Source: Squalus acanthias
Taxonomy: Eukaryota
Assembly: GCA_030390025.1 (NCBI GenBank)
Contig: CM059443.1
Coordinates: 33,604,001 to 33,668,000 of the forward strand
Direction of reading: 5' to 3'
DNA: 64,000 nt
Below are positions 3,844-8,704 of the stretch, piece after piece (the first letter of the stretch is position 1; the number at the start of each line of letters is the position of its first letter). The position numbers and the translations under genes are program-made. The notes below the pieces were generated by a model. It had not been told where the DNA came from and made no database searches. It saw only the letters and a program-made list of their open reading frames with translations.

Positions 3844-3981
3844 GAACGCATGCTCTAATTGAAGTCTGTAACCCCCCCCAGGGCAACCCTCTCTGCTGCT
3901 CTGCCAGCCCTCCCCTGACTCATGTTAAAAAATTGAGAGGTCGCACAACACCAGGTTATAGTCCAACAGTTTTATTTGAAA

Positions 3982-4023
3982 TCACAAGCTTTCGGAGCTA
4001 TCGATTGCTCCTTCCTCAGGTGA
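3982..4023 (-). ncRNA. Minimal type I hammerhead ribozyme (inverted arm of the PLE)
   Basis: Reverse complement of 7087-7128. Confidence 0.8.
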
Positions 4024-4686
4024 AGTAAATTAGATACAGAATCGCCAAAGCATATATAGATAGAAAACAAAGCATGTGTACCTTACAATTGCAGACCACT
4101 AAATTAAATCATCCTGACTATCTGCCGAGGTGTGATAAAGTTAATTAAGTCAGCCAGGAAGGTACATCAAAGACATAGCAAGATACAACTGAGACAATGA
4201 GGTGTAGTCGCAGGGGTTCTAACGTGTCAAAAGCTGCCGTCTGTATGTAAAACGAAAAGCTTTAAAATTTTTACTTTTTTACTGGGAAAATTTTTACTTT
4301 TTTACTGGGAATCACATCTGTGAACAAGCTAACGACGACTCGAGTCCGGATCACGTCATGTATCGTGACATAAACCCAAGATCCCGATTGAGACCGTCTT
4401 CATGAGTGCGGAACTTGGCTATCAGTTTCTGCTCGATGATTTTGCGTTGTCGTGTGTTTCTAAGGTTGCCTTGGAGAACGCTTACCCGCAGATCCGAGGC
4501 TGAATGTCCTTGACTGCTGAAGTGTTCCCCGACTGGGAGGTAACAATCCTGCCTGGCGATTGTTGCGCGGTGCTCGTTCATACGTTGTCTCAGTGTCTGC
4601 ATGGTCTCGCCGATGTACCATGCCGCGGTGCATTCTTTCCTGCAACGTATGAGGTAGACAACGTTGGCCGAGTCACATGAGTATGT

Positions 4687-6759
4687 CATCCCAAGATGTC
4701 AGCAACAAACCCAATGAGACAATCAATGATCCAGAACAGCAGACAGAGGGACTCGCAGTGCAGCAACCGAAGAAAAAAGAGTCAAACTGGACCCCTCCGG
4801 AGGGTCGCTGCCCCAAGCTTGACATGTATGCTCAAGCTGTCAGGAGATGCATCAACGCCAGATTCATCAGCCGCACTCACAAGACAGTCCAGAATGTCAC
4901 CCGAGCACAACGCAACGCCATCCACGCTCTCAAGACCAACCGCAACATTGTCATCAAACCAGCGGACAAAGGAGGAGCCATCGTCCTACAGAACAGAACG
5001 GACTATTGTAAAGAAGCATACCGACAACTGGACAACCAGGAACACTACAGACAGCTACCCGCAGATCCGACCAAAGAACACACCCGCCAACTCAATAGAC
5101 TGATCAAGACCTTCGATCCAGACCTTCAAAACATCCTACGCGCTCTCATCCCACGTACTCCCCGCGTGGGAGACTTCTACTGCCTCCCAAAGATACACAA
5201 AGCCAACACACCCGGACGTCCTATCGTATCAGGCAATGGAACCCTGTGTGAGAACCTCTCTGGATACGTCGAGGGCATTCTGAAACCCATCGTACAGGGA
5301 ACCCCCAGCTTCTGTCGCGACACTACAGACTTCTTACAGAAACTCAGCACCCACGGACCAGTTGAACCAGGAACACTCCTTGCCACGATGGACGTATCGG
5401 CACTCTACACCAGTATCCCCCACGATGACGGCATCGCTGCAACAGCCTCAGTACTCAACATCAACAACAGCCAATCTCCAGACGCCATCCTACAACTCAT
5501 CCGCTTCATCCTTGACCACAATGTCTTCACCTTCGACAACCATTTTTTTACCCAAACACACGGAACAGCCATGGGGACCAAATTCGCACCCCAATACGCC
5601 AACATCTTCATGCACAAGTTCGAGCAAGACTTCTTCGCTGCACAGGACCTCCAGCCAACGCTGTACACCAGATACATCGACGACATTTTCTTCCTTTGGA
5701 CCCATGGCGAAGGATCACCTGAAAAGACTACACGATAACATAAACAAGTTCCATCCCACCATCAAACTCACCATGGACTACTCCTCAGAATCGGTCTCAT
5801 TCCTGGACACACGAATCTCCATCAAAGACAGACACCTCAGCACTTCACTCTACCGCAAGCCCACGGACAACCTCACGATGCTCCACTTCTCCAGCTTCCA
5901 CCCTAACCATGTTAAAGAAGCCATCCCCTATGGACAAGCCCTGCGATTACACAGGATCTGCTCAGACGAGGAGGAACGCGATGGACACCTACGGACGCTG
6001 AAAAACGCCCTCGTAAGAACGGGATATGACGCTCGACTCATCGATCGACAGTTCCGACGGGCCACAGCGAAAAATCGCATAGACCTCCTCAGAAGGCAAA
6101 CACGGGACACAACCAACAGGGTACCCTACGTCGTCCAGTACTTCCCCGGAGCGGAGAAACTACGCCATGTTCTTCGCAGCCTTCAACATGTCATCGATGA
6201 CGACAAACACCTCGCTAAGGCCATCCCCACGCCTCCACTACTTGCCTTCAAACAGCCGCCTAACCTCAGAAGTACCATCGTTCGCAGCAAATTACCCAGC
6301 TTTCAGGATAACAGCGACCACGACACCACACAACCCTGCCATGGCAAACTCTGCAAGACATGCCAGATCATCAACACAGATACCACCATCACACGTGAGG
6401 ACACTACCCACCAGGTACATGGTACATACTCATGTGACTCGGCCAACGTTGTCTACCTCATACGTTGCAGGAAAGAATGCACCGCGGCATGGTACATCGG
6501 CGAGACCATGCAGACACTGAGACAACGTATGAACGAGCACCGCGCAACAATCGCCAGGCAGGATTGTTACCTCCCAGTCGGGGAACACTTCAGCAGTCAA
6601 GGACATTCAGCCTCGGATCTGCGGGTAAGCGTTCTCCAAGGCAACCTTAGAAACACACGACAACGCAAAATCATCGAGCAGAAACTGATAGCCAAGTTCC
6701 GCACTCATGAAGACGGTCTCAATCGGGATCTTGGGTTTATGTCACGATACATGACGTGA
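4687..6759 (+). pseudogene. PLE reverse transcriptase - GIY-YIG endonuclease polyprotein; N-terminus truncated, one +1 frameshift near 5715
   Basis: PLE motifs IKPADKGG, YCLPKIHK, GRPIVS, MDVSALYTSI, GTAMG, RYIDDIF in ORF 4677-5738; FLD, LYRKPT, Cys linker PCHGKLCKTC and VVYLIRCRKEC..YIGET..RMNEH..VGEHF..GLN in ORF 5362-6759. Confidence 0.93.
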
Positions 6760-7086
6760 TCCGGACTCGAGTCGTCGTTAGCTTGTTCACAGATGTGATT
6801 CCCAGTAAAAAAGTAAAAATTTTCCCAGTAAAAAAGTAAAAATTTTAAAGCTTTTCGTTTTACATACAGACGGCAGCTTTTGACACGTTAGAACCCCTGC
6901 GACTACACCTCATTGTCTCAGTTGTATCTTGCTATGTCTTTGATGTACCTTCCTGGCTGACTTAATTAACTTTATCACACCTCGGCAGATAGTCAGGATG
7001 ATTTAATTTAGTGGTCTGCAATTGTAAGGTACACATGCTTTGTTTTCTATCTATATATGCTTTGGCGATTCTGTATCTAATTTACT

Positions 7087-7128
7087 TCACCTGAGGAAGG
7101 AGCAATCGATAGCTCCGAAAGCTTGTGA
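7087..7128 (+). ncRNA. Minimal type I hammerhead ribozyme in the PLE pseudo-LTR
   Basis: TCAC-CTGAGGA-A-GGAGC-aatcgata-GCTCC-GAAA-GC-TT-GTGA: stem I, CUGANGA box, stem II, GAAA box, palindromic AAGCTT in place of helix III. Confidence 0.85.
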
Positions 7129-8704
7129 TTTCAAATAAAACTGTTGGACTATAACCTGGTGTTGTGCGACCTCTCAATTTTGTCCACCCCAGTCCAACAC
7201 CGGCATCTCCGCATCATGTTAAAAAGCCAGGGTGCTGCTGCTGCTGCTCTCTCTCTCTTGCTTGTCTGCTGTGGAATGTTATTTGTCCTCTTCCCTCTGC
7301 TCATTGAATTTTATATGCATGATTGTGAGAGGGAAGGAAGTGGGGGTTGGGGGTTGTGTGTGCAATATATGCATTGGGATAACAGTTGCTCCTTTAATTG
7401 ATGGGATAAATGATTCTTTTTTGCAGTGTAGTTGCATAAGGCAAAATTGGTGATGTTTTCAGAGTGGGGGGTGCATAATCTCTTTTGTGAGAGATTGAGA
7501 CGTCTGCGACGCACAAAGCAAAGTTGGTGCTCTTTTTGCACCAGGAGGCATTTTGTGCAAAGGGTGTTATAATCTTGCATGTATCTCCTTCTGCCCCTTT
7601 TGTGAATTGCAGCAATCGCAGTTTTTTTTCTGTTCTGCAACGGATCTCTTTTTTCACGAGCACCGTTCTATTGGGGTTGTCGGGGTAGAAAAAAAGTAAT
7701 CTCTGGTGGAATCCTTGGTGCCAGTTCACCATGGCGACGGTGACGCTGAGTGGACGCATTTCAAATGGATTATGAGCATCAGTTTCACACGTTGCCAACC
7801 TGCACTGTATTTGACTGTTTCATGCCTCCCCCTCCCCCCAATTGACATTGTTTTCTGGGTCAGATATAATAGGAATAATAGAAATAATACACAAAGTTAA
7901 GTTGTAATACTTTTGCCCAAAGACAATGGGAGTGGATTTTTTTATCTTTGAATTTCCCTTATTGTGTATGCATGTCATGCAGCATTGGAAGTTAATCCAA
8001 TATATAGATATCTGTTAACTGCTAGGGATGTTGTAGCTATGTGCAGTCTATTCCTGATAGTTTGACATCAGCTTTTTGCTGAAAAATGAATAATTCAGTA
8101 TTGTCATTGAGCAGTGTAAATAATGCAGCAAGGGGGAATTTGGTGCTTGAATTATTAGATCATTTCAATTAACAACTTTCAATTAAGCGCAGACTGTAAT
8201 AGGGAAACTAAGACCCAGCGTAACAATCACTACTAAACTAAATCATTTTTTTTGTAAAGTATCTGCAAGAAAAACCCAGCAAAGTGATTCAGGATTAACA
8301 GCATTTGCATCAGTATGATGTTTGTGAATAAAATGTGTGTTCTTTTGTACCTTTTGTAGTTGAGGCAAGTATCTTGTGGAGATTAATGCAAGTATTTCTG
8401 TGCTTTTTCTTTTGTTGCCCATTTTTTGTTCTTTCTATTTGAAGAGCATGGCGATTCTCTCGGTATCCTGGCCTACATATATCCCTCACCGTTGACCTCT
8501 CTGCTGTCTGTGGGATCTCTCTGTGCGCAAATTGGCTACGGTGTTTGCCGGCATTGCAACTTTGACTGCACTTCAAAGAAACGACTTCATTGGAGCACTT
8601 TGGGATGTCCTGAGTTTGTGTAAGGCGCTTTATAAATGCAAGTTCATTATTTCTTTTCCTCTTTCTGGGATGTTCAGTAATTCACCAAACTGTCCATTCA
8701 TTTT

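Follow-up and report, generated by a model that had tools for sequence, protein, structure and literature searches.

An inverted-arm, 5'-truncated insertion in Squalus acanthias is probably a dead-on-arrival Neptune-type Penelope-like retrotransposon

A stretch of 64,000 nt from Squalus acanthias (GCA_030390025.1, CM059443.1:33,604,001-33,668,000, forward strand; hereafter the window) carries near its left end an insertion that is best explained overall as a dead-on-arrival copy of an endonuclease-bearing, Neptune-type Penelope-like retrotransposon, with a probability of roughly 0.85. The identity of the element and the truncation of this copy are, taken jointly, highly probable. The copy is an ordinary new member of a known element class, and anatomy of this kind has already been published.

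Results

A preliminary description made from the letters of the sequence had called the element almost intact. This does not hold, as about 190 of some 880 codons, at the N-terminal end, the start codon and the upstream repeat are all missing, so that the copy is dead whatever the effect of the frameshift described below. Judged from its sequence, it is a 5'-truncated copy predicted to be unable to encode a working protein. The closest full-length relatives are 881-882 amino acids (aa) long (P0004, P0005), and the window frame starts at about residue 189 of P0004 (offset 188). Across 64 relatives of 800-1000 aa the median N-terminal offset is 193.5 (range 117-355), and a Scyliorhinus protein 84% identical to the copy (P0135) extends 134 residues farther upstream. 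Conserved N-terminal blocks, taken from the consensus of 70 aligned rows, are absent. Searches of the window by tblastn with four 200-aa N-termini returned nothing beyond 30 aa that overlap the beginning of the open reading frame (ORF) and one match at E 0.19, and the in-frame ATG codons before 4689 all derive from the inverted arm. A complete ORF of about 880 aa with start codon and upstream repeat, as in an autonomous copy, is thus not present; the upstream direct repeat is absent because of the 5' truncation.

The remaining coding sequence lies in two overlapping stop-free frames, 4653-5738 with the reverse transcriptase (RT) and 5284-6759 with the RT thumb, linker and endonuclease, the switch falling near 5718. 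The homologous coding part comprises 342 + 346 codons, in keeping with the proposed frame of about 690 codons without an internal stop. The truncated ORF in its first frame (4689..5714, +) holds the RT domain with DKGG, MDVSALY, GTAMG and YIDD, the last at 5673-5684; it is followed by the +1 frameshift (5715..5718, +) and the second frame (5719..6759, +; stop codon 6757-6759). Within the latter are a zinc-finger-like CX4CX2C linker of Neptune/Nematis/Naiad type (CHGKLCKTC, 6337..6363, +) and a GIY-YIG endonuclease (6448..6756, +) with CCHH residues and conserved R, H, E and N. All nine motifs sought (DKGG, RT3-5, the linker, the CCHH endonuclease core, R, H, E, N) were found, including the Cys-rich linker and Cys/His endonuclease reported earlier. 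In the endonuclease VVYLIRCRKECTAAWYIGET, R..H, HF and E..N are present, and the nearly invariant alignment columns are retained. The order of RT and then C-terminal GIY-YIG in one ORF is uninterrupted in the relative P0001 and broken by one frameshift in the window copy. Pfam RVT_1 matched the first frame at E 2.7e-8; Pfam GIY-YIG narrowly passed its cut-off of 22.6 bits, at 22.7 and 23.8 bits, with the endonuclease part scanned alone, and gave no match when a longer piece was scanned. NCBIfam returned only generic RT matches below cut-off, and a PDB sequence search a single irrelevant match (E 0.36).

The outline of the insertion is also clear. Two arms, 3929-4686 and 6424-7181, are each 758 nt long and 100% complementary with 0 mismatches, which upholds the identity first judged by eye. 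The left arm (3929..4686, -) is an inverted, tail-less second copy of the 3' end of the element, with its endonuclease-coding part, 3' untranslated region (UTR) and hammerhead motif. The 3' UTR/pseudo-long terminal repeat (pseudo-LTR) lies at 6760..7181 (+) and contains a 23-bp tandem duplication (6799-6844); a "tail" of about 32 bp follows at 7182..7213 (+), at the right end only, the left arm having none. At the head-to-head junction of two 5'-truncated cDNAs (4687..4689), 1-3 bases cannot be assigned to one side or the other. The flanking duplication that had been noticed proved to be a 12-bp target-site duplication, TCATGTTAAAAA, at 3920-3931 (+) and 7214-7225 (+). The last 3 bases of its left copy overlap the arm end, and the first 4-5 bases of its right copy also match the end of the family tail. 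Among 3000 random pairs of 30-nt windows only 5 shared a 10-mer or longer by chance. The unit outlined earlier as 3929-7216 is accordingly real, with its right end at 7225, duplication included, rather than at 7216. The pseudo-LTR, the inverted truncated copy, the 30-40 bp tail at one end and the target duplication are thus all present in the window copy. This subfamily differs from the other copies in the window by the 23-bp duplication of its 3' UTR and by a hammerhead loop II (7104-7111) of greater length; the duplication is present with 0 differences in a contig of run X13.

Public sequence contigs place the copy within a very abundant family with siblings at 99-100% identity. Of 24 runs listed, 18 contain 0.49-0.87 of the words of the sequence, under five organism codes, and none is recorded as RNA; the runs with a small or zero share were set aside. 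Contigs of four runs (X1, X3, X6 and X13) were aligned to 3844-6420, with X3 covered to about 55%; 32 of about 39,650 aligned contig pieces were listed. X1 alone gave 18,715 aligned contigs, 7573 of them at 99% identity or more. Its summed depth drops about 13-fold between 6166-6251 (1.29 million) and 4704-4789 (96,000). Such a drop toward the 5' end is what 5' truncation should give, although summed depth is not copy number and the fall is only a hint. The single +1 frameshift proposed near 5718 finds support here, as all four runs hold contigs one base shorter (10, 2, 2 and 1 contigs), two listed pieces (X13 and X6) having 0 substitutions and a single gap at 5718. The extra base appears to be private or rare, and some siblings are without it; in X3 the gap accounts for only 48.5 of 239,746 depth. 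The copy carries a few other private or rare changes. The window letter at 4986 occurs in none of the aligned depth of any run, that at 5947 in at most 0.2%, and a two-base change in both arms (4573-4574/6536-6537) is a minority or absent in three of the four runs (40 of 67 rows listed).

Pieces without substitutions made up four of the eight listed in X13 and three of the eight listed in X6. In runs X9-X18, which carry four further organism codes (B-E), the share of the words is 0.49-0.58. Contigs of X13 (organism C) are mostly 98-100% identical at a depth far below that of X1; this near-identical sequence may come from a close species, carried-over DNA or transfer between species, which are indistinguishable here. 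X6 is RNA only by conjecture, and its depth profile resembles that of the DNA runs.

Domains, motifs, protein search and tree all support the earlier view of a Penelope-like element with Neptune-type motifs and shark relatives. A search with the RT piece against proteins of 600-2000 aa gave 2412 matches among 3843 candidates, of which the best 120 were listed. The best named matches among those listed are from Heptranchias perlo (94% protein identity) and Scyliorhinus torazame (88%); proteins of turtles and invertebrates come next, at about 40-55%. Among the 120 listed, full-length relatives reach no more than 66% identity, and in the Heptranchias cluster P0001, with 54 members, the longest of 15 listed is 697 aa. 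In a tree of 31 rows (the window copy and 30 of 146 fetched proteins, picked by name and rank) the copy adjoins the shark rows, in one clade with the Heptranchias perlo proteins (P0001 cluster, 90-94% aa identity) and the Scyliorhinus torazame proteins (P0003 cluster, 82-89%). Over the C-terminal piece the copy is 89-91% identical to six Heptranchias copies, which are 92-99% identical among themselves; it therefore belongs to another subfamily or species. For one family copy from Heptranchias perlo (P0128) the NCBI annotation reads "divergent protein kinase domain 2Ab" (an isoform); a host gene model has probably absorbed a transposon frame there.

Assignment to Neptune would follow from motifs. 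In Craig et al. (2021, PMC8557442) a CX2-5CxxC linker is described in Neptune, Nematis and Naiad and is not in Penelope/Poseidon; the window copy has such a linker, CHGKLCKTC. Its linker-to-GIY spacer, with 23 residues from the CxxC to the next Cys, is by eye Neptune-like and differs from the Nematis rows of Fig. S2 there, which are short, and the sequence is likewise similar by eye to the Neptune1_Ap and DreriNep1 alignment rows. The Neptune clade as presented in that source shares with the copy a single ORF, RT, the CX2-5CxxC linker and a C-terminal CCHH GIY-YIG endonuclease, as well as 5' truncation, an adjacent inverted truncated copy, a 30-40 bp tail at one end and a terminal-repeat hammerhead; no structural difference from the copy was seen. 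Neptune is paraphyletic in its tree.

Other classes were rejected. Naiad/Chlamys elements have an N-terminal endonuclease and that of the window copy is C-terminal; Poseidon does not fit the linker present here; and a miniature inverted-repeat transposable element or DNA transposon does not fit arms that are the ORF's own 3' end. An L1-type inversion was likewise rejected; in such inversions the inverted part is not duplicated.

Neptune elements are widespread across vertebrates (bioRxiv 10.64898/2026.07.22.740005) and have been reported active in killifish (PMC12602865), and Penelope-like elements were present in all vertebrates surveyed in PMC4350176. A named description of the shark family was not found in the literature, nor was a published count of two-priming events, within a scope that ended short of Repbase, Dfam, subscription papers and preprint supplements.

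Three older related insertions lie elsewhere in the window, two of them two-armed. The unit at 34538..34942 has a tailed side of about 129 bp, a tail-less side of 264 bp and a 10-bp duplication. Its tail-less side maps to 6920-7182 of the main element and its tailed side to 7084-7217; the segment 6920-7084 occurs only in the former and the tail only in the latter, so that neither is a subset of the other. The two sides overlap by 3 bases at the centre, and there is a small internal inversion (34721-34745) relative to the main element. The unit at 51458..51695 has a tail-less arm of about 88 bp, a tailed side of about 130 bp and a 13-bp duplication; it is short and hammerhead-centred, with a near-palindromic centre, whereas the centre of the main insertion is free of palindromes. 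Each of the three two-armed units has its tail-less end within about 6 bases of a common family position, and at either outer end 2-5 bases are common to unit and target. Between their arms, the two short units show differences at 4 of 94 and 1 of 89 positions. The third related copy (32289-32515) is one-sided and 83% identical to the main element.

The terminal repeat contains a minimal hammerhead motif (7087..7128, +) fitting the descriptor of Cervera and De la Pena (PMC4209133), with a 4-bp stem I, CUGAGGA core, extra A, 5-bp stem II and GAAA, and with stem III replaced by a palindromic AAGCUU. Self-cleavage is putative. A mirror copy lies at about 3982-4023 (-), and the motif occurs at seven places in the window, 7087-7128 and six more. 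Stems I and II form in the fold, at a z of -1.39 that is not significant alone; Rfam gave 0 matches at E up to 5.

No host gene was identified by Pfam in 107 scanned frames of the window. The scan took in 107 of 114 listed non-repeat frames, six in-element frames being omitted and one swapped for a shorter piece, and its two matches were zf-C2H2 below cut-off (12980-13240, -) and an RT remnant (59421-59741). LINE-type RT remnants and the weak C2H2 match lie at 12980-13240 (-), 16193-17257, 43637-45458, 55614-56213 and 59421-61369, and about 48% of the window has another copy within it. A GC- and CpG-rich, promoter-like stretch (~2290-2400) lies about 1.5 kb from the insertion and is followed by non-repetitive sequence (2450-3093) that resumes at 7226. 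Gaps of N occupy 3094-3593 and 3603-3843.

Discussion

An inverted, 5'-truncated copy with a 30-40 bp tail at one end is the norm for Penelope-like elements in PMC8557442 and PMC3846280, so the preliminary description rightly treated the inverted pseudo-LTR as a known trait of the group. For the window insertion an intact copy elsewhere would have supplied the protein, whose GIY-YIG endonuclease cut both strands of an AT-rich target with an offset of 12 bases, as the duplication shows. From each nick, reverse transcription of element RNA may then have begun at a microhomology of 2-5 bases: one start site included the tail and gave a 2.5 kb cDNA, while the other lay about 32 bases further in and gave a 758 bp cDNA. 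Presumably neither cDNA reached the 5' end, and the two were fused in head-to-head orientation. The product, a dead-on-arrival insertion, lacks some 190 N-terminal codons and the upstream repeat and has one base too many.

Of the mechanisms considered, two primings are somewhat favoured. In Frangieh et al. (2024, PMC11167929) a Poseidon-clade protein cuts and extends both strands of AT-rich DNA in vitro, and reverse transcription starts at two sites bounding the tail. That protein is from PAc, a Poseidon of Anolis carolinensis, and like the window copy PAc is a vertebrate Penelope-like element with hammerhead, tail and AT-rich targets; its two start sites match the two ends of the window insertion. 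Unlike the window copy, it belongs to another clade, is full-length and is active in vitro. The unit at 34538-34942 bears on the same question. Neither of its sides is a subset of the other, therefore neither was copied from the other, barring later deletion, and the longer tail-less side would favour two primings over fold-back copying.

Several points weigh against this account. The two-priming step rests on three insertions, the asymmetry of the 34 kb unit could reflect later deletion, and the in vitro work with two starts concerns Poseidon. The rare two-base change common to both arms is also consistent with one arm having been copied from its partner. The tree has no labelled Neptune, Nematis or Poseidon references. 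The contig tables do not separate a real extra base at 5718 from an assembly error, and the junctions at 3928/3932 and 4686/4687 are unbridged by any of the 32 listed contig pieces. The arm lies only 85 bp from an N gap, and the age bound given below borrows the mutation rate of another shark.

The arm could have been made from the first cDNA by self-priming (fold-back on an antisense template), or homogenised later by gene conversion, a possibility that we hold to be less probable than two primings yet worth keeping in view. The arms are identical down to the two-base change and the 23-bp duplication, the 51 kb copy has its near-palindromic centre, and in Arkhipova et al. (2013, PMC3846280) self-priming is the interpretation given to head-to-head inverted repeats that have palindromes at the junction. 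However, the main insertion is without such a palindrome, the tail-less side of the 34 kb copy holds sequence missing from its tailed side, where alone the tail is found, and target microhomology is seen at both outer ends in three of three insertions. In the same source Pen2/Pen2a of Adineta vaga likewise have inverted terminal repeats, a target duplication (9-10 bp) and an optional tail on one repeat (31 bp); unlike the window copy, they belong to the Penelope/Poseidon clade without the Cys linker, and they combine arms of about 200 bp with an upstream direct repeat, compared with a 758-bp arm and no such repeat here.

An assembly error, with a short-read assembler reusing one repeat contig beside the gap, is an improbable source of the arm or of its perfect identity. 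The nearby N runs, the very high copy number of the family and the unbridged junctions would suit such an error. Against it, the 12-bp duplication links two unique flanks across the unit, the arm ends at a family position at which two unrelated insertions, both distant from gaps, have their arms end as well, and the structure is the published norm. Duplication and conserved break point therefore make invention of the arm by the assembler unlikely.

Very unlikely indeed is the original view, in which the element is nearly intact, would regain coding capacity by the loss of one base and belongs to a family active today: catalytic residues intact over some 690 codons without an in-frame stop, and siblings lacking the extra base among so many X1 contigs at least 99% alike, are outweighed by the loss of N-terminal codons with conserved motifs, of start and of upstream repeat, by the lack of full-length relatives above 66% identity or Heptranchias members longer than 697 aa among those listed, and by a loose age bound.

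The dead-on-arrival insertion is nevertheless young compared with neighbouring repeats, as had been supposed. Its CpG observed/expected ratio is 0.88 in the ORF versus 0.31-0.42 in four LINE remnants of the window, and, with the differences between the arms of the short units, this makes it the youngest of the three two-armed units. At 7e-10 per base per generation, the rate of the epaulette shark (PMC10587355), the lack of any difference in 758 bp is compatible with an age of up to 2.8 million generations, or of 1.9-2.3 million if CpG hypermutation is assumed. Activity within the last few million generations is supported. The family had been thought recently or currently active; recent stands on this scale and current is unsupported, given the loose bound and no intact close sibling listed.

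By itself the copy is of little weight, a truncated and frameshifted member of a known, abundant class, and PAc already provides a working compact protein from a Penelope-like element of a vertebrate (PMC11167929). Its use is as a clean specimen. With the two kinds of end, the target duplications and the microhomologies seen in the three insertions, the formation of the arm becomes testable by counting in a shark genome. That the subfamily is still transposing in sharks, that the insertion is polymorphic at its place about 1.5 kb from the promoter-like stretch, and that two-armed insertions form a genome-scale record of double priming at the tailed and tail-less start sites, extending the two-start result to the Neptune clade, is as a whole a doubtful prospect. 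Should the family prove active, it would add a source of mutations to a lineage whose point-mutation rate is among the lowest measured.

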